Of a stretch of 64,000 bases of DNA, positions 3,388-49,098 are shown in pieces; within the stretch, counting starts at the first letter, position 1, and every line of letters starts with the position of its first letter. A model generated the notes under the pieces. The model was not told the origin of the DNA. It searched no databases and worked only from the letters and a program-made list of their open reading frames with translations. The position numbers and the translations under genes were made by a program. The stretch is from an uncultured Acidobacteriota bacterium (lineage in GTDB: Bacteria; Acidobacteriota; Vicinamibacteria; Fen-336): NCBI GenBank assembly GCA_963740655.1, contig CAVUFF010000011.1, positions 502,834-566,833 of the forward strand, written 5' to 3'.

Positions 3388-3901
3388 ATGGAGCCGTACA
3401 ACGTCCTCTTCCTCTGCACTGGCAACTCGGCGCGCAGCATCATGGCCGAGGCGCTCCTGAACTACTGGGGCCAAGGGCGGTTCCGCGCGCTTCAGCGCCG
3501 GCAGCCAGCCGAAGGGCGAGGTCCATCCGCTGACGCTGGAGACGCTGGAGCGGACGCACTTGCCCGACGGACGGCGCTGCGCAGCAAGAGCTGGAACGAG
3601 TTCTCCGGCCCGGAGCGCCCCGAAGCTCGACTTCGTGTTCACCGTGTGCGGCAACGCGGCGAAGGAGCAGTGCCCCTACTGGCCGGGCCAGCCGATGACC
3701 GCGCACTGGGGCGTGGACGACCCCGCCGCGGTCGAGGGCACGCTCGAGGAGCAGCGCCGAGCCTTCGAGCGCGCGCTGCGCGAGCTGGACGCCCGGATCA
3801 AGCTCTTCATCAGCCTGCCCATCGACTCGCTCGACAAGATGGCCCTCCAGGAGAGGCTCCGGGACGATCGGCCGCACTCCCGCGACGAAGGACTGAGGTG
3901 A
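3388..3901 (+). pseudogene. arsC: arsC (LMW-PTP/thioredoxin-coupled arsenate reductase), disrupted by about 3 frameshifts
   Basis: MEPYNVLFLCTGNSARSIMAEALLNYWGQGRFRA is followed by three frame switches (FSAGSQPKGEVHPLTLETLERTHLP, then LRSKSWNEFSGP, then APKLDFVFTVCGNAAKEQCPYWPGQPMTAHWGVDDPAAVEG). Joined, they reconstitute a canonical ArsC. The ribosome-binding site GAAAGGAG sits before the ATG. Confidence 0.75.
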
Positions 3902-3922
3902 CGACCGGACGCGGCCAAGCGG

Positions 3923-4996
<1,074 letters not shown>

Positions 4997-26902: not shown

Positions 26903-27295
26903 CTACGGCTGGGAAGTGCCGGCCTCCGCCTGCTCGAGCATCGTGTTGACGATCGTGAGCAGCTTGTTCGCGGTGAAGGGCTTGTTGATGTACATCACCG
27001 CGCCCGACTCGAAGCCCTCCGCGAGCGCCTCGCCACCGCCCTTCGCCGTCAGGAAGATGACGGGGATCTCCTTGGTGCGCCCGTCCTGCTTGATCTGACG
27101 GCACACCTCGAAGCCGTCCTTGTCGGGCATCATCACGTCGAGCAGCACGAGGTCGAAGACCTGCTCGCGCAGCAGCTTCAGCGCTTCCTCGCCGCCGCCG
27201 GCGGTGGTGACCAGGAACCCCTTCTGCTCCAGGATGGTGCGCTCGAGGCTCAGGATGTTCTCGTCGTCGTCAACGACAAGGATTCGCTTGGCCAT
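26903..27295 (-). CDS. Single-domain CheY-like response regulator receiver
   Basis: ILVVDDD, LVLLDVMMP and phospho-acceptor Asp contexts. 130 aa with no output domain. Confidence 0.9.
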   Translation of the reverse strand: MAKRILVVDDDENILSLERTILEQKGFLVTTAGGGEEALKLLREQVFDLVLLDVMMPDKDGFEVCRQIKQDGRTKEIPVIFLTAKGGGEALAEGFESGAVMYINKPFTANKLLTIVNTMLEQAEAGTSQP

Positions 27296-27369
27296 CCGTC
27301 CTCCGGCCGAAAGCTTGTCTGGTGATCGGGCGGGATTCTAGCACCGAAGCGCCGCGCAACACCCGGTTC

Positions 27370-28008
27370 TCAGGGGATCACGAGCTCCCCGCAGGCGCCG
27401 CCCGCCGTGCACGCCCGGAACGTGCCGGAGCCGTACGCCCACACCAGGTACTGGTTGTCCGAGTGGTTGAGGCACGCCGTCCCCCCGTCGGGGCCGTTGC
27501 AGCGCTTGCCGTTCGCCGACCACGTCGGCCCCGCGCGGCCCGTGTCCGCGGCGCGCCCGACGCGCAGGGCCTCGCACGCGGCGCGCTCGGGGTCGCCTTC
27601 CATCCGCACCGGGCACACGCTGCGGCCGTCCGTGAAGCCGATGTTGCGGCAGTAGACCGCGTCCGAGACGAGCGGCGTCGAGTCGAGCAGCGCCCGGCTC
27701 GAGGACCCGCCGTGCAGCTTGACGTTCATGCGCGCGATCGGCGGCGGCAGCGGTGCGCTGCAGGTGCCCGAGACGTTGCCGCCGCCTCCGCCGCCCCCGC
27801 CACCGCCCGGATCGTACGGATCGGGCTCCGGATCGGGCTCGGTCCCGGGCGTGGGCGTCGGCGTGGGCTGGGGCGCCGGCGCCGTCGGCACCATCGCGAC
27901 GTCGGGCTGCGTCTGCGTGCGCCTCGACTCCGACGCGGAGCCGCCGCAGGCGGCAGCCAGGAGCGACGTCAGCAGCAGGGCGCCTAGCGCGAGCGCCGCC
28001 CGGTCGTC
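27370..28008 (-). CDS. Cys-rich PT-linker lipoprotein, paralog 1 (8-Cys domain of unknown function). Start codon unresolved.
   Basis: Signal/lipobox ALALGALLLTSLLAAAC. PT/G-rich linker. 130-aa domain GTCSAPLPP...AYC..IGFTDGRSVCPVRMEGDP..ACE...DTGR.GPTW...C....C..DNQY...AC....CG. No ATG/GTG/TTG in frame between the P2 stop and the signal peptide. Confidence 0.5.
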   Translation of the reverse strand, partial: DDRAALALGALLLTSLLAAACGGSASESRRTQTQPDVAMVPTAPAPQPTPTPTPGTEPDPEPDPYDPGGGGGGGGGGNVSGTCSAPLPPPIARMNVKLHGGSSSRALLDSTPLVSDAVYCRNIGFTDGRSVCPVRMEGDPERAACEALRVGRAADTGRAGPTWSANGKRCNGPDGGTACLNHSDNQYLVWAYGSGTFRACTAGGACGELVIP

Positions 28009-28666
28009 AGCGGTCGACGAAAACCGAGCCGCAGACGCCGTTCTTGTTGCCGCAGGCCTGGTAGCTGCCGGCCTTGTAGGCGAAGACCTGGTACTGGTTG
28101 TCGGGGCTGTTCTCGCACACCGGCTTCCCGGTGCACGAGCTGCCGTCGACGGACCAGGTCGGCCCGTTGCGCCCGGTGTCGTGCGCGCGCCCGACGACGA
28201 CGAGCTCGCAGGCGCTGCGCTGGGGATCGCCTTCCATGCGGACGGGGCACACGCTCCGGCCATCGGTGAAGCCAATCTTGGCACAGTAAGCAGCGTCCGG
28301 GCCGACGAGCGGCGTCGAGTCGAGCAGCCAGTGGTTGTCGCCGCGCTGGTGGATCTTCACGTTGATGCTCGAGAGGTCCGGCGGCAGCGGCGAGCCGCAG
28401 CCGGCGGCGTCGCCCGGATCCGGCGTCGGGCTCGCGGACGGATCGGGCGTCGGCGTGGCGTTCGGGTCGGGCGACGGGGTCGGTTTGCTCGGTGCGCCGA
28501 GGATCGGCGGGTTGGGGTTGGGGGAGCTGCTCGCGATCGGCCTCGGGTCCGGCGTCGGCTCGGGACGCGTCGGCGTGGCGAGCGTCCCGCAGCCCCACGC
28601 CAGCACGCCGCACGCCACGACCAGGCCCCCGAGTGCCCCCAGGCTGAAGGCCCGTGTCACCGGCAC
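28007..28666 (-). CDS. Cys-rich PT-linker lipoprotein, paralog 2
   Basis: GTG start (VPVTRAFSLGALGGLVVAC lipobox). PT-rich linker. Same 8-Cys domain (CGSPLPPDLSSINVKIH...IGFTDGRSVCPVRMEGDPQRSACE...DNQYQVFAY...VCGSVFVDR). Confidence 0.6.
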   Translation of the reverse strand: MPVTRAFSLGALGGLVVACGVLAWGCGTLATPTRPEPTPDPRPIASSSPNPNPPILGAPSKPTPSPDPNATPTPDPSASPTPDPGDAAGCGSPLPPDLSSINVKIHQRGDNHWLLDSTPLVGPDAAYCAKIGFTDGRSVCPVRMEGDPQRSACELVVVGRAHDTGRNGPTWSVDGSSCTGKPVCENSPDNQYQVFAYKAGSYQACGNKNGVCGSVFVDR

Positions 28667-28709
28667 ACGGTCACACGCAGGCGGCGGGCTGTCAAGCCTG
28701 CGCGCGCGA

Positions 28710-29357
28710 TCAGCGGTCCACCTGCACGCTGCCGCAGACGCCGTCGTCGGTGCAGGCCTCGTAGAGCCCGCCGCCGTAGGCGTACAGGAGGAACTGGTTG
28801 TCCTCGTGGTTGTCGCAGTCGCCGGCGGCGCCGGTGCAGTAATGGCCGTTGCGCGTCCAGGTCGGGCCCGGCCGGTGCGTGTCGGCCGCGTACCCGATCG
28901 CGTAGATCTCGCAAGCGAAGCGGTCGGCGGAGCCCTCGATGCGGACCGGGCAGTCGAGGCGGCCGTCGGTGAAGCCGATCGCCGCGCAGTACGCACCGTC
29001 GTGCACGAGCGGCGTGACGTCGAGCGTGTACTTGTTCGGGCCGCGGATGTGGATCTTGGCGTTCATCCGCGAGATGCCGGGGGGCAGCGGGCTGCCGCAG
29101 CCTCCGCTGTCGGGCGGCGTGGGCGTCGGGGCGGGCGCCGGAGTCGGCGTCGGACCGGGCCCCGGCGCCGGCGGGGGCGGCGAGCTCGGCTTGGGCACAG
29201 GCGTCGCGGCCGGGATCACGGGAATCGCGACCTTCAGCACGCCCGACGCGGGCGCCTTGGGGGCCTCGGAGGGCTGAGTCGGCAGCTCTTCGGTGATCGT
29301 GTGACAGCCCACCAGAAGGAGGGCAGCAGCGGCCATCCCGAACAGGACTCGGTTCAT
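28710..29357 (-). CDS. Cys-rich PT-linker lipoprotein, paralog 3
   Basis: ATG at 29357. Lipobox MNRVLFGMAAAALLLVGC. PAP/PT linker. Same 8-Cys domain ending CGSVQVDR. Confidence 0.7.
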   Translation of the reverse strand: MNRVLFGMAAAALLLVGCHTITEELPTQPSEAPKAPASGVLKVAIPVIPAATPVPKPSSPPPPAPGPGPTPTPAPAPTPTPPDSGGCGSPLPPGISRMNAKIHIRGPNKYTLDVTPLVHDGAYCAAIGFTDGRLDCPVRIEGSADRFACEIYAIGYAADTHRPGPTWTRNGHYCTGAAGDCDNHEDNQFLLYAYGGGLYEACTDDGVCGSVQVDR

Positions 29358-29430: not shown

Positions 29431-30579
29431 TTAGCCCAGAAAAGGTCGAACGATGGCCGCCGCCCGGCCGGAGGCACCCGGACCGCCGAGCCTTTGTCTC
29501 ACCTCGGCGAGCCCCGATTTCACGGCGGCGCGGTGCGCCGGGTCGTCGAGGAGGCGGCCTACCTCGCTCGCCACGGCCTCGGGCTGGAAGCCGCGCTGGA
29601 TGAGCTCCGCGACGACCCGCCGGCCGGCGATCAGGTTCGCCATCGCGTAGTGTGGAACGTGGACGAAGGGCCGGCCGAGCGCGTAGCTGAGCGGCGACAC
29701 GCGGTAGACGACGACCGAGGGCAGGTCGAGCAGGGCCGCTTCGACGGTCGCCGTACCCGAGGCCACGATCCCCGCCGTGGCCGCGCTCATGAGCGCGTGC
29801 GTCTCACCTGCGACTCGCTTCACGTCGAGCCCGCCGAGCGCCGCGTCGAAGATCGAGGGAGGTGTAGCGGGGGCCACCGCAAGCGCCGCCTGGAGCTGCG
29901 GGCGCTCGCGCAGCAGGAGGCGCAGCGCGCCCGCGATCGGCGGCAGGTTGTAGGCGATCTCCTGGCGCCGGCTCCCCGGCAGCACGGCGATTACCGGCCG
30001 CTCGGGATCGAGCCCGTGGGCGGCCAGGAAGGCCCGCGGGTCGCTGGCCGGGCGCAGCAGCTCCACCAGCGGGTGGCCGACGAAGCTCGCGCTCACTCCG
30101 GCCTCGCGATAGAAGGCCTCCTCGAACGGGAAGATCACGAGCATGCGCGCGACGTGGCGCCTTACCGCGCGCAGGCGGCCGCGCCGCCAGGCCCAGATCT
30201 GCGGCGAGACGTAGTAGACGACCGGGATCCCGCGCGCGTCGAGCGCGCGGGCGAGCCGGAGGTTGAAGCCGGCGTAGTCGACGAGGACGGCCGCATGTGG
30301 CCGCTCGCGGTCCACCTCCCGCAGCACCGAGCGGAACACCGCGCGCAGGCGACGCAGGTGGCGAAGCACCTCGACGAGCCCCACGACTGCGAGCTCGCTC
30401 ACGTGCGCGAGGAGGTGGGCTCCCTGGGCTCGCAGCCGGTCGCCGCCGAGCCCGAACACCTCGAGCTCGGGGACGTCCTCCCGGAGGTGGCTTACGAGCT
30501 CGCCCGCGTACAGGTCGCCGGACGGCTCGCCGCTCGAAACGAGGAGCCTTCGCCTCGCGGGCGGGGACGCTTCTGCCAC
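29431..30579 (-). CDS. lpxB: Lipid-A-disaccharide synthase
   Basis: N-terminal SSGEPSGDLYAGELV. GT19 family length and motifs (VDYAGFNLRLA, LPGSR). Confidence 0.9.
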   Translation of the reverse strand: MAEASPPARRRLLVSSGEPSGDLYAGELVSHLREDVPELEVFGLGGDRLRAQGAHLLAHVSELAVVGLVEVLRHLRRLRAVFRSVLREVDRERPHAAVLVDYAGFNLRLARALDARGIPVVYYVSPQIWAWRRGRLRAVRRHVARMLVIFPFEEAFYREAGVSASFVGHPLVELLRPASDPRAFLAAHGLDPERPVIAVLPGSRRQEIAYNLPPIAGALRLLLRERPQLQAALAVAPATPPSIFDAALGGLDVKRVAGETHALMSAATAGIVASGTATVEAALLDLPSVVVYRVSPLSYALGRPFVHVPHYAMANLIAGRRVVAELIQRGFQPEAVASEVGRLLDDPAHRAAVKSGLAEVRQRLGGPGASGRAAAIVRPFLG

Positions 30580-45229: not shown

Positions 45230-46261
45230 GCTGTGGCCTCGCGCGGGAGCGCGAGGGGCCTCGCTCCATGGCTCGCGGCGCTGGTGCTGCTCACGAGCGC
45301 CCTCGCCGCGGCCTGGCGCTACGAGATCTCGTCGACCAAGATCGATGCGGGGCTCCTGCCCGTGCGGCTCGTGGTGCCGCAGGGCGCGAGCGTCGGGGCG
45401 ATCGCACGCCAGCTGCACGCGATGGGCCTCGTGCGCCACCCGCTCGTCTTTCGCGTGCTGGCGGCGCGGCAGGGTGTCGCGGGACAGCTGAAGGCGGGCG
45501 AGTACGCGCTCTCGGGACCGCTGTCGGTCCAGGGCATCCTGGACGCGTTGGTGCGCGGCGACGTGCTGCGCCGCGACCTGACCGTGCCCGAGGGCCGCAG
45601 CCTGGACGAGATCGCGGCGCTCGTGGTCGCGGAGGGGCTTCGGCTCGACGCCTTCCTCGCCGCCGCCCGCGACCCGACGCCGATCCACGACCTCGACCCC
45701 GCGGCCGCGAGCCTCGAGGGCTACCTGTTCCCGGACACGTACGACGTGCCCCAGACGCCCGAGGCGCCGCGCGCTCTGGTCCGCCACATGCTCGAGCGCT
45801 TCCGCGCGGTGATCGGGCCCGAGCTGCCGCGCATCGCCGGCAAGGGGCTGACGGTGCGGCAGGTGGTGACGCTCGCCTCGATCGTCGAGCTCGAGACCGC
45901 GCAGCCCGGCGAGCGGCCGCGGATCGCCGCCGTGTTCCTGCACCGGCTGGAGAAGGGCATGCCGCTGCAGACCGATCCGTCGGTGATCTACGCGCTGAAG
46001 CTGGCCGGCCGCTGGGACGGCAACATCCGCAAGAAGGACCTCGACATCGACTCGCCCTACAACACCTACGTCCACCCCGGCCTGCCGCCCGGTCCGCTCG
46101 GCTCACCGGGCAAGGACGCGATCCGGGCCGTGCTCGATCCCACGCCCGGCAAGGAGCTCTACTTCGTGAGCCGCAACGACGGCACGCACGAGTTCAGCGA
46201 GACGCTCGACGCGCACAACCGCGCGGTGAGCCGCTACCAGCGGCACCGCGTGAGCTCCTGA
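45230..46261 (+). CDS. mltG: Endolytic murein transglycosylase MltG (YceG family); start approximate
   Basis: N-terminal TM anchor (LAALVLLTSALAAAW). YceG motifs (GEYAL, SIVELE, QTDPSVIYAL, SPYNTY). Candidate GTG near 45232. Confidence 0.8.
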   Translation, partial: AVASRGSARGLAPWLAALVLLTSALAAAWRYEISSTKIDAGLLPVRLVVPQGASVGAIARQLHAMGLVRHPLVFRVLAARQGVAGQLKAGEYALSGPLSVQGILDALVRGDVLRRDLTVPEGRSLDEIAALVVAEGLRLDAFLAAARDPTPIHDLDPAAASLEGYLFPDTYDVPQTPEAPRALVRHMLERFRAVIGPELPRIAGKGLTVRQVVTLASIVELETAQPGERPRIAAVFLHRLEKGMPLQTDPSVIYALKLAGRWDGNIRKKDLDIDSPYNTYVHPGLPPGPLGSPGKDAIRAVLDPTPGKELYFVSRNDGTHEFSETLDAHNRAVSRYQRHRVSS

Positions 46262-46264
46262 GCC

Positions 46265-47902
46265 GTGGGCGTCCGCTCCCACGCGCCGGCGCCGCCGCCC
46301 CGTGCCAGGCCGCGCGGGCCGGGCCTCATGGCGGGGCTCGTGGTCGTGGTCCCGGCGTTCCTGCTGCTCGCGGCGAACGGCCGCACGCTGCCGGCGCCGC
46401 CGCTGTCCTGGGCCGCCTCGCTCCTGCTCTCGGCCGCGCTCGCGCTCGCCGGTCTGGTGCTCGAGGTCGACGCGACCGGCGCCGCGCTCGTCGGCAAGCT
46501 GCTGGCCGCGCTCGTCGCCGCGCTCGCGGCCGGAGCGCTCTTCGCCGCCGTCGCCCGCCGCCACGGCGCGGCCGAAGGGCGCTGGGCCGGCTTCGCGCTC
46601 GCGCTGGGCACGACGCTCGCCGGCGCCGCTCAGGCCTGGTCGGGCGAGGCCGCCGCGACGGCGGCGGTGGCAGTCGCGCTGCTGCTGCTGGTGCGCGCCG
46701 AGGAGGAGCAGCGCGCCATGCCGGCCGCGCTCGCGGGGCTGCCGCTCGGGCTCGCCGTCGCGCTCCAGCCGAGCGCGGGCCTTCTCGCGCTCGTGCTGGC
46801 GCTGGCCGTGGTCGTTCGCTGGCGCCTCGCCGGCCTCGCGGTGCTGGCCTGGGCGCTGCCGGGGGGGCTCGCGGCGCTCGGCTCGCTCGCGGCGGCGCCG
46901 CTGCCGCTCGCCGCGGGCGCTGCGGGGCCTCGCGTTGCCGAGGAGGCGCTCGCGCTCCTCGCGTCGCCGGCGAAGGGGATGCTGGTCTTCGCGCCCGTGG
47001 GGCTGGCCGGCCTCGCCGGCCTGCTGCGCGCACTGCGCGTGAGGACGCCGCGGCTGTGGGACCAGGCCGCGCCGACCAAGCTGCTGCCGATCGCGTGCCT
47101 GCTGGCCGCGCTGGCTCACGTCGCCTGGCTCGCTCTGGCCGGCGGCTGGAGCCAGGGCCCCTTCTGGGGGCCGCGGCTCGTGGCGCCGCTCTGGCCGCTG
47201 CTGCTGCTGTTCCTGCCCGAAGGCTTCGCGTTGCTGCGCCTGGCCGCGTCGCTCCTGGTCCTGGCCTCGGTGGGCGTCCAGGCGCTGGGCCTGCTGAGCT
47301 ACGACGGCCGCTGGGACAAGCTCCAGGCGGCGGCTTCGCCCGCGCGCGCTCTGTCGGCGTGGGACTTCCGGACGAGCCCGATCGCCTTCTACGCACGCGA
47401 CCCCGCGGCCCGCATCGCCCTGCCGGCGCTCGAAGGCCGGCGCTTGACGAGCCGCGAGCGCACGTTCGCGCCGCGGGGCGGTGCCGGCTCGTTCGTCTCG
47501 TTCGCGAAGCTCCCTCCCACCCCGACCGGTGCCGACCAGACCTTCGACTCTCTGCGCTTCGACGGCGGCGCCCGTTTCGAGGCGGACGGGCTCGTGCTGG
47601 CGGCCGCGGGCGACGGGCTGGGCTTCCGCGTGCGCGAGGGCGCGCGGCCACGCCGGCTCGAGGTCCGGGTCGCAGGCCACGGCACCGGCGTCGTCGGCCT
47701 CGGCGAGAGCGGCTCGGGCGCCGGCACGCGCTGGCGCGACTCGAGCGTGGGCGGCGCCTTCAGGCTGCGCCTGCCCTACCTTTTCGCGGAGTCCGGCGGT
47801 CCCGACCTGCGCCTCGTGCTGCGCTCGGGCGGCCCCGTGCGCATCGACTCGCTCGCGCTCGTGCCGCCGACCGAGCCCGAGAACGTGCTGCGGCTGCCCT
47901 AG
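46265..47902 (+). CDS. Polytopic inner-membrane protein with ~12 Ala/Leu-rich TM helices and a C-terminal soluble domain
   Basis: Repeated hydrophobic segments through ~350 aa, then a non-membrane C-terminal region. Any glycosyltransferase-C-like assignment is speculative. Confidence 0.45.
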   Translation: MGVRSHAPAPPPRARPRGPGLMAGLVVVVPAFLLLAANGRTLPAPPLSWAASLLLSAALALAGLVLEVDATGAALVGKLLAALVAALAAGALFAAVARRHGAAEGRWAGFALALGTTLAGAAQAWSGEAAATAAVAVALLLLVRAEEEQRAMPAALAGLPLGLAVALQPSAGLLALVLALAVVVRWRLAGLAVLAWALPGGLAALGSLAAAPLPLAAGAAGPRVAEEALALLASPAKGMLVFAPVGLAGLAGLLRALRVRTPRLWDQAAPTKLLPIACLLAALAHVAWLALAGGWSQGPFWGPRLVAPLWPLLLLFLPEGFALLRLAASLLVLASVGVQALGLLSYDGRWDKLQAAASPARALSAWDFRTSPIAFYARDPAARIALPALEGRRLTSRERTFAPRGGAGSFVSFAKLPPTPTGADQTFDSLRFDGGARFEADGLVLAAAGDGLGFRVREGARPRRLEVRVAGHGTGVVGLGESGSGAGTRWRDSSVGGAFRLRLPYLFAESGGPDLRLVLRSGGPVRIDSLALVPPTEPENVLRLP

Positions 47903-47955
47903 GTCGCGATCTCTCTCCGGGGGCGCTGCGCCGCGGTGGTAGGATCGCGAGCGTC

Positions 47956-49098
47956 ATGAAGAATCCAGACGGCCGTCGCGCCTTCCTCCGCACCTCGCTC
48001 CGCGGCGTCGCGCTATCGACGCTCGCGGCCGGGCGTCCCGCCAGCGCGTCCGCGCAGGAGCCGGCCGCCGCGCCGAAGCCCGCGCGGATCCGCTTCGCGG
48101 CGATCGGGCTCAATCACGGCCACATCAACGGCCAGACCGAGGCCGTGATCCGCGGAGGCGGCGAGCTCGCCTCCTTCCACGCGCCCGAGGACGACCTCGC
48201 GGCCGCTTTCCAGAAGCGCTTCCCGCAGGCGAAGCGGGCGCGCGAGGAGCGCGAGATCCTCGAGGACGCGGGGATCAAGCTCGTGGTGAGCGCGGCGATC
48301 GCCAGCGAGCGCGCGCCGCTCGGCGTCCGCGTGATGCGCCACGGCAAGGACTTCATGGCCGACAAGCCGGGCATCACGACACTCGAGCAGCTCGCCGAGG
48401 TGCGCAAGGTGCAGGCCGAGACGAAGCGCATCTACTCGATCTGCTACAGCGAGCGGCTCGAGAACAAGGCGACCGTGCGGGCGGGAGAGCTCGTGAAGGC
48501 GGGGGCGATCGGCCAGGTGATCCAGACGATCGGCCTCGGACCGCACCGCATGAACCCGTCCACCCGACCGCCCTGGTTCTTCGAGCGCGAGAAGTACGGC
48601 GGCATCCTGTGCGACATCGCGTCGCACCAGTTCGACCAGTACCTGTTCTTCACGGGCTCGACGAAAGCGGAGGTGGTGGCGGCGCAGGTGGCGAACGTGC
48701 GCCACCCGCAGTACCCGGGGCTCGAGGACTTCGGCGACGTCATGCTGCGCGGCGACAAGGGCGCGGGCTACATCCGCGTCGACTGGTTCACGCCCGACGG
48801 GCTCGCGACCTGGGGCGACGGCCGGCTCACGATCCTGGGGACGGACGGCTTCATCGAGATCCGCAAGAACATCGACCTCGGCGGGCCGCGCCAGGGCGGC
48901 AGCCACCTGTTCCTGGTGGACGGCAAGCAGACGCGCTACGTCGACTGCAAGGACCAGCCGCTGCCCTACGGGACGCAGCTCGTCGACGACGTGCTCCACC
49001 GGACCGAGACCGCGATGCCGCAGGAGCACTGCTTCCACGCGATGGAGCTGGCGCTCGTCGCCCAGAAGCAGGCGCAGCGCGTGCGCTTCGAGGCCTGA
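47956..49098 (+). CDS. Gfo/Idh/MocA-family oxidoreductase with a Tat signal peptide
   Basis: RRAFLRTSL twin-Arg motif. IRFAAIGLNHGHI Rossmann start. EKP-like family core. Confidence 0.8.
   Translation: MKNPDGRRAFLRTSLRGVALSTLAAGRPASASAQEPAAAPKPARIRFAAIGLNHGHINGQTEAVIRGGGELASFHAPEDDLAAAFQKRFPQAKRAREEREILEDAGIKLVVSAAIASERAPLGVRVMRHGKDFMADKPGITTLEQLAEVRKVQAETKRIYSICYSERLENKATVRAGELVKAGAIGQVIQTIGLGPHRMNPSTRPPWFFEREKYGGILCDIASHQFDQYLFFTGSTKAEVVAAQVANVRHPQYPGLEDFGDVMLRGDKGAGYIRVDWFTPDGLATWGDGRLTILGTDGFIEIRKNIDLGGPRQGGSHLFLVDGKQTRYVDCKDQPLPYGTQLVDDVLHRTETAMPQEHCFHAMELALVAQKQAQRVRFEA

Follow-up and report, generated by a model that had tools for sequence, protein, structure and literature searches.

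What is encoded by three adjacent, related genes whose predicted products resemble lipoproteins and carry a domain that matches no curated family, and is the third of them, which has no recognizable start codon, still a gene at all? This question is raised by positions 27370-29357 (minus strand) of a stretch of DNA from an uncultured soil acidobacterium, 64 kb of which were analyzed (hereafter the window, G+C about 72%). Here the listing of open reading frames (ORFs) and the sequence itself contain three consecutive paralogous ORFs in the order P3, P2, P1 (Table 1), each with a lipobox, a Pro/Thr-rich linker of 60-70 residues, and a core domain of ~131 residues. A first-pass annotation of this stretch had described such an array of lipoprotein genes with one shared architecture, and the description was confirmed by the ORFs, by alignment, and by a hidden Markov model (HMM) of the core. 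Pairwise identity among the three proteins was 46-51% over the full length and 53-59% over the core in a three-way alignment, tblastn and HMM scores placed their paralogy far above chance (E 1e-40 to 1e-72), and the core HMM found exactly three copies in the window, namely P3, P2, and P1. Eight Cys of the core and the lipobox Cys are invariant in the alignment, in agreement with the strict conservation claimed at first; the motif blocks listed with that claim are likewise present, apart from small deviations such as TLD for LLD in P3. A protein identical to P3 (P0001) is encoded on an 898-kb NCBI contig.

The signal peptide and lipobox that had been proposed for these proteins proved typical of the family. 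The criteria were ortholog conservation and the lipobox pattern, a lipoprotein being required to have a basic n-region, a hydrophobic h-region, and a lipobox of the form [LVI][ASTVI][GAS]-C about 15-35 residues from the start. By sequence and by conservation in orthologs, P3 fits a PROSITE PS51257-type lipoprotein signal (MNR...LLVG-C18), and P2 fits the same type of signal (MTR...LVVA-C17, also LAWG-C24). The h-region and a lipobox (LAAA-C, Cys codon 27946-27948) are present in P1 with no canonical start codon upstream of them, and the signal peptide is complete in P1 orthologs of other lineages. Two candidate lipobox Cys, C17 and C24, stand within positions 28589-28612 (minus strand) of P2; the orthologs L002 and L003 (L[AT]WAC-G) favor the second, in which the Trp at -2 lies outside the classical lipobox pattern. 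The linkers also contain conserved peptides. Directly after the lipobox Cys of P3 comes HTITEELPTQP; across 116 P3 orthologs (P0001-P0119) with identities of 50-100% elsewhere, its conservation is at least 90%, equal to that of the core, and it might serve as a sorting or export signal or as a docking peptide. A second, semi-conserved linker motif reads GVLxVxIPxIP, and the linkers of P1 orthologs (L001-L003, L008, L011) share the motif LP(D/N)xA(S/G)xIPxAPAPQPTPTPTP; in the lineage of the window a run of 9-10 Gly stands in the P1 linker just before the core.

The core domain belongs to a family for which Pfam, NCBIfam, and the PDB have no entry as yet, and the earlier statement that it could not be assigned to a known family therefore holds for the libraries searched. 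The cores of P3, P2, and P1 gave no match in Pfam-A or NCBIfam at E up to 1 (the linkers gave low-complexity noise only) and none in a PADLOC search, a profile built from 20 core sequences retrieved 0 PDB chains at E up to 10, and a Pfam scan of 102 diverse family members returned partner domains only, none of them on the core. A Foldseek search of the PDB with the core model found no close fold match, and a full-text literature search found no match for the motifs GFTDGR, TITEELPTQP, and DTGRPGPTW. The model itself, which was built without ligands and reached a predicted local distance difference test (pLDDT) score of 96, suggests a loosely immunoglobulin (Ig)-like β-sandwich and not a toxin-like knot. 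A set of conserved polar and aromatic residues (K-x-H, LDxTP, GFTDGR, R-x-E-G, R..CE, W, N) is kept in all three paralogs, and the invariant polar constellation persists in family members that are only 30-40% identical.

All eight Cys are kept in 152 full-length members, at least 10 clusters have lost Cys5 together with Cys6, and 2 have lost Cys7 together with Cys8. This co-loss is the pattern expected of disulfide partners, and four disulfides probably lock the core. The model and the paired losses thus fit the compact, four-disulfide extracytoplasmic fold first proposed, while the suggestion that it might be toxin-like gives way to the modeled Ig-like sandwich. The eight invariant Cys, taken with the invariant His, Asp, and Glu, could alternatively coordinate a metal and make these proteins metal-binding or redox lipoproteins; however, Cys residues are lost in pairs as disulfides would be, export is predicted, the CxxC or CxC spacings of typical metal sites are lacking, and a confident fold was obtained without ligands, all of which makes metal coordination a remote prospect.

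The core family is small. With P3 as query, a word-indexed search retrieved 215 homologs, every one of them without a name or labeled 'hypothetical' and lacking any Pfam domain. An exhaustive profile search of 1.84 billion cluster representatives (clustered at 50% identity) yielded 377 clusters at E up to 1e-3, of which 223 remained at E up to 1e-10. The four genome loci retrieved were all from Acidobacteriota metagenome-assembled genomes (MAGs), and most complete members have an N-terminal lipobox followed by a Pro/Thr linker, which makes the architecture seen in the window the family norm. No match was found by tblastn against plasmid and phage collections. A scan of IMG/VR gave a single partial member (L014 56-202, UViG_3300047552_000908; 49% identity over 43 residues), located at the very edge of a 17-kb contig that is classed as viral and is possibly host DNA or mis-binned.

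Outside the stand-alone lipoproteins, a divergent core variant with six Cys forms the C-terminus of lipoproteins of 480-690 residues, and in at least 10 clusters it lies C-terminal to a glycoside hydrolase (GH) barrel of clan GH-A. The N-terminal domain of one such protein, P0187, matches PF13204 (Apiosidase-like) and, weakly, GH5; a PDB profile search with the alignment of the GH fusions gave no match, whereas a fold search with the GH fusion did give matches, to the clan GH-A barrel. Between barrel and core lies a 'helper' domain of ~100 residues, which is also the N-terminal domain of a class of 326-residue lipoproteins (P0123, L004, L005). One member combines a lipobox, a carbohydrate-binding module (CBM) of family CBM5/12, the helper, and the core, and six members carry an NBR1-type Ig domain. 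The six-Cys variant stands behind each kind of partner, be it the GH-A barrel, the CBM5/12, or the Ig domain. These fusion partners (GH-A, CBM5/12, NBR1-type Ig) tie the family to polysaccharides without telling binding and acting on them apart.

The age of the array was examined in four MAG or metagenome loci, then six more, and then JGI metagenome contigs. The gene order LpxB, P3, P2, P1, receiver recurs in about 50 MAG or metagenome loci with 1:1 orthology; past the receiver, genes for a PfkB kinase and an MTAP-like phosphorylase lie on the opposite strand. Every contig with enough sequence has three cores between lpxB and the receiver, with the sole exception of L072, in which lpxB, one P3-type gene with HTITEELPTQP (3740-4387), the receiver promoter, and the receiver follow one another, indicating that P3 can exist without P2 and P1. 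Between loci, copies in corresponding positions resemble each other most (about 76% versus 50-58% identity), which implies that the triplication predates the split of lineages with no more than 50% identity between their P3 proteins. Judged by these sequence relationships, the triplet is ancient and conserved and not the product of a recent triplication. The array does lie directly upstream of a stand-alone CheY-like receiver on the same strand, as first described, and whether homologs always occur as tandem arrays beside a receiver had been posed as a check; within the clade the receiver follows in every locus with enough sequence, also in L072 with its single P3-type gene, whereas members outside it lack the receiver neighbor, L004 and L016 being single genes, L005 a tandem pair, and L006 a GH fusion. 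A PEGA protein, a penicillin-binding protein (PBP) transpeptidase, an S41 protease, and M23 peptidases are encoded at greater distance from the array.

From the fusion partners described above, we tentatively favor, as best supported, the reading that the domain of P3, P2, and P1 is a tethered glycan-binding module whose ligand is an envelope or extracellular polysaccharide, a reading we consider plausible but somewhat short of probable; a tether from outer membrane to peptidoglycan would be a special case of it. Each protein would be exported and acylated at the lipobox Cys, and would display one small, rigid β-sandwich, probably with four disulfides, at the tip of its Pro/Thr-rich tether. 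Binding would putatively proceed through the conserved constellation listed above, and the three paralogs, having diverged, would bind glycans alongside one another on their tethers, in the manner of surface glycan-binding lipoproteins or of a CBM without its enzyme. In favor of glycan binding we count the CBM5/12 domain in one member, the NBR1-type Ig domain in six, the retention of the polar residues by all three paralogs, and the position of the triplet in an envelope neighborhood (LpxB, PBP transpeptidase, PEGA, S41). The core also shares with CBMs a modeled β-sandwich fold and an occurrence as a discrete module in carbohydrate-active enzymes, the latter in the six-Cys variant, the window's own proteins being unfused. 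Several points weigh against glycan binding. The GH-A and CBM5/12 fusions belong to the divergent six-Cys subfamily and always include the extra helper domain, so a function found there is carried over to the stand-alone lipoproteins only by extrapolation; where CBM5/12, helper, and core are combined, the core could equally well be the effector or a catalytic unit; more charged residues are invariant (H, D, R, R, E, R, E) than is typical of a CBM; and common descent within one clade may by itself account for the synteny with envelope genes.

Two of these points bear on a different proposal, in which the core, alone or with the helper, is a small extracytoplasmic enzyme acting on polysaccharides and the invariant His, Asp, Glu, Arg, and Tyr form its active site. 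In its favor, the polar constellation persists among distant members, and CBM5/12 followed by helper and core is the usual layout of a targeting module with a catalytic unit. However, enzymes that act on glycans are seldom built on an Ig-like sandwich of 130 residues, the searches revealed no catalytic family similar to the core, and the GH-A fusions already carry a bona fide catalytic barrel. We regard an enzymatic core as quite unlikely.

The main alternative to glycan binding, favored by the architecture, the linker motifs, and the envelope neighborhood, is that the tethered domain binds a protein; anchored in the outer membrane, it would span the periplasm with its linker to regulate or inhibit an envelope enzyme. 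LpoB activates PBP1B in Escherichia coli, and lipoproteins of the MliC/PliC and Omp19 types inhibit lysozymes or proteases. A lipobox, a disordered linker of ~65 residues, and a globular domain of ~130 residues, about 215 amino acids in all, match this class in layout; a PBP transpeptidase, an S41 protease, and M23 peptidases are encoded nearby; the strongly conserved short linker motifs, HTITEELPTQP among them, suggest docking peptides; and invariant charged residues of surface type are numerous. Against this, no relationship to LpoB, MliC/PliC, or an inhibitor family emerged from Pfam and NCBIfam, the domains fused to other family members point to glycans and not to proteases or PBPs, and the neighborhood is known to be conserved within one clade only. 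A protein ligand thus appears unlikely, though less so than catalysis.

Comparison with characterized lipoproteins leaves the core resembling several of them in design and none in sequence. LpoB, with its lipobox, disordered linker of ~55-70 residues, and domain of ~130 residues, comes close in layout and size, and a PBP gene lies in the window neighborhood; its domain has an α/β fold, whereas the core is modeled as a disulfide-bonded β-sandwich with no Pfam or NCBIfam match that would make the two homologous. The lysozyme inhibitors MliC/PliC and the protease inhibitors Omp19/Inh likewise place small β-rich domains on envelope-protecting lipoprotein anchors, and the core has no family homology to LpoB, MliC/PliC, or Omp19. 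The lipid-modified azurin of Neisseria (Laz) joins a lipobox to an Ala/Pro-rich low-complexity linker and a Greek-key β-sandwich of ~125 residues; unlike Laz, the core lacks copper-site residues and cupredoxin matches, and its Cys behave as disulfide pairs. Among glycan binders, the SusE/SusF-like surface glycan-binding proteins of Bacteroidota are lipid-anchored, non-catalytic β-sandwich proteins on a flexible N-terminal tether, often with paralogous neighbors and tied to glycoside hydrolases, and in P3 the acidic motif TEE, a few residues past the lipobox Cys, loosely recalls the lipoprotein export signal of Bacteroidota. These proteins belong to another phylum, have no sequence or close structural similarity to P3, P2, and P1, and contain tandem Ig or CBM domains in place of a single small disulfide-rich domain, and the window locus has neither a SusC/SusD-type transporter nor a polysaccharide utilization locus. 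The CBMs on clan GH-A hydrolases (GH5, GH140) resemble the core in their β-sandwich, in the C-terminal accessory position taken by its variant, and in co-occurrence with CBM5/12; in contrast, the core matches no Pfam CBM family, its eight-Cys pattern and invariant charged residues are atypical, and most of its members are lipoproteins without an enzyme.

The signals upstream of the three genes bear on how P1 could be expressed. The pattern TTGACA-N14/15-TGnGAnCnT has two matches in the window, upstream of P3 and of P2, with 0 expected by chance, and in the other loci fetched (L002, L003, L008, L011, L013 etc.) it occurs only before these paralogs. Read from its sequence, this element would be a promoter with a perfect -35, a 17-nt spacer bearing an extended -10 TG, and a weak -10 hexamer. 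An ATG or GTG stands exactly 6 nt past the -10 hexamer in 8/8 P2 and P1 promoters examined (for P1, in lineages keeping its promoter), and the position of the P2 start codon is conserved in orthologs. A start at +6 implies leaderless mRNAs for P2 and, where the promoter is present, for P1. The conserved leader of P3 (CTGATGTGAATTCTAGGCGAGGGG, ~30 nt), by comparison, includes a GGCGAGGGG stretch before the ATG. A search of Rfam over 26.5-30 kb gave no match. P3 and P2 would thus be transcribed from their own promoters, and P2 would be translated as a leaderless message.

No in-frame ATG, GTG, or TTG lies between the P2 stop and the P1 lipobox, as the first-pass annotation had observed. We classified 44 P2-P1 junctions. 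In 26-28 of them (class A) a spacer of 96-164 nt contains a promoter and a leaderless start, in 7/44 (5 distinct; class B) a short spacer provides ATG, GTG, or TTG, and in 9/44 (8 distinct; class C: the window, L001, L019/L021, L022, L024, L031, L032, L033) a short spacer leads to the lipobox without a canonical start. Relatives of the window at 90% identity or more in independent assemblies have the same start-less state, and one relative at this level has GTG in place of the window's first CTG (27976-27978). An assembly error was rejected as the cause, given that Illumina as well as nanopore assemblies contain start-less junctions, and these differ in sequence. The canonical start of P1 has probably been lost on more than one occasion.

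Such a loss would be expected of a recently inactivated pseudogene, deprived of start codon and promoter, with only P3 and P2 functional in this lineage. The missing start is consistent with inactivation, as are the fact that gene callers found only the internal ATG at 27894, which removes the signal peptide, and the existence of lineage L072, which lives with P3 alone. However, the ratio of nonsynonymous to synonymous substitution rates (dN/dS) of the P1 core among start-less lineages is 0.08-0.35, indistinguishable from P2 and P3; it is 0.08-0.31 for closely related start-less pairs and 0.15 for L022 and L001, which are 96% identical. No frameshift or stop was found in the P1 core among the Illumina contigs examined, and the eight distinct start-less lineages all retain an Arg-containing n-region, an h-region, the lipobox, the linker motifs, and the core. 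A start codon is moreover a 3-nt target against a gene body of about 600 nt, and repeated first hits on it are unexpected under neutral decay. A dN/dS like that of P2 and P3 and intact ORFs indicate that start-less P1 is under purifying selection and not decaying, and we judge inactivation decidedly improbable. Of the two possibilities first raised for P1, decay is thus contradicted, while translational coupling, or another non-canonical mode of initiation, stands.

Several conventional routes to a P1 product were considered and rejected. Readthrough of the P2 stop fails because P1 is never in the P2 frame, and a programmed frameshift would have to be +1 in one sub-group and -1/+2 in the other, with no slippery or re-pairing site. 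Any P2-P1 fusion would moreover bury an Arg-rich, hydrophobic, lipobox-containing segment that is sensible only as an N-terminal signal. Initiation at the ATG at 27894 would remove the signal peptide, and this codon is not conserved (e.g., L001). Starts 254-275 nt upstream, inside P2, were downgraded but not strictly discarded; they are conserved only through their overlap with the P2 motif YCAKIGFTDGR and would produce a presequence of ~105 residues. Open alternative frames were set aside as evidence, being equally open in lineages with a normal P1 start and uninformative in G+C-rich DNA. Most likely, we infer, P1 initiates on the P2 transcript in a termination-coupled or non-canonical manner, so that in the lineage of the window, where promoter and start codon of P1 have been lost, the protein would be made from that transcript. 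In the sub-group with P1 in the +2 frame, an in-frame CTG overlaps the P2 stop (CTGA) and would yield a textbook signal peptide, with an in-frame GTG 43 nt upstream as an alternative. In the sub-group of the window, with P1 in the +1 frame, there is no consistent canonical or near-cognate start, and the nearest upstream canonical start lies 254 nt inside P2. The public gene call for P1 in the window is a 174-aa product from the internal ATG (27892-27894) without a signal peptide, and calls in relatives run to 119-202 aa from assorted internal GTG and ATG codons; this is probably a mis-annotation that stems from the missing canonical start.

Acidobacteriota are among the most abundant soil bacteria, and their envelope and surface proteins are almost uncharacterized. 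A core that is compact, confidently modeled, absent from the curated libraries searched, kept as a triplet near lipid A synthesis genes, and recombined elsewhere with glycoside hydrolases is a concrete candidate for a new family of carbohydrate-binding or envelope-binding modules. Its overall kind, a small β-sandwich on a lipoprotein tether with paralogous neighbors, is familiar, and metagenomic dark matter abounds in uncharacterized families of this size. The most unusual element is a start-less but selected P1 downstream of a leaderless cistron, a naturally occurring system for the study of non-canonical or termination-coupled bacterial initiation and a case in which automatic annotation is probably wrong. 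The boldest combination of these threads is that the core founds a new disulfide-locked family of glycan recognition (or glycan activity) in soil Acidobacteriota and that P1 is functional without a canonical initiation codon, ribosomes re-initiating at the stop codon of a leaderless cistron before it or right beside that codon, in one sub-lineage through a CUG overlapping UGA (CUGA) and in that of the window at a site that is not even near-cognate; that all of this should hold jointly we consider unlikely.

Table 1. Coordinates of the array, its expression signals, and its immediate neighbors in the window
Feature	Positions	Strand	Details
lpxB (lipid-A-disaccharide synthase)	29431..30579	-	PF02684, E 8e-87; upstream of P3 in all loci
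Promoter-like element of P3	29386..29415	-	TTGACA-N15-TGT-GACCTT; then ~30-nt conserved leader; conserved upstream of P3 orthologs
P3 gene	28710..29357	-	ATG, 215 aa; signal peptide and lipobox 29304-29357, MNRVLFGMAAAALLLVG-C; then linker, core
P3-specific motif HTITEELPTQP	29271..29303	-	Directly after lipobox Cys; conserved in orthologs
P3 core domain	28713..29105	-	131 aa, 8 Cys
Promoter-like element of P2	28667..28695	-	TTGACA-N14-TGT-GACCGT; GTG start 6 nt past -10 hexamer
P2 gene	28007..28660	-	GTG start, 217 aa; core 28010-28405; N-terminus MTRAFSLGALGGLVVA-CGVLAWG-C; stop 28007-28009
P1 signal-peptide-like segment	27946..28006	-	DDRAALALGALLLTSLLAAA-C; directly after P2 stop; CTG codons at 27970-27978
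P1 mature part	27370..27945	-	Linker with 10-Gly run 27778-27807; core 27373-27774
Extended -10 promoter-like element of receiver	27333..27343	-	TGCTAGAATCC; ~38 nt upstream of receiver ATG
Stand-alone CheY-like receiver	26903..27295	-	130 aa; PF00072, E 1.9e-30; after array in every locus with enough sequence

The promoter-like element TGCTAGAATCC upstream of the receiver has a single match in the window, with 0 expected, and is identical in 9/9 syntenic loci checked and in L072. This invariance suggests that the receiver is transcribed on its own, and we regard it as a conserved neighbor with its own predicted promoter, whose shown relation to the array is one of adjacency. Elsewhere in the window, positions 46001-48000 are an outlier in composition (G+C 0.77, AT skew -0.28), coinciding with an Ala/Leu/Gly-rich ORF (46265-47902, plus strand) that resembles a polytopic membrane protein and begins just after an MltG/YceG-like ORF ending at 46261.

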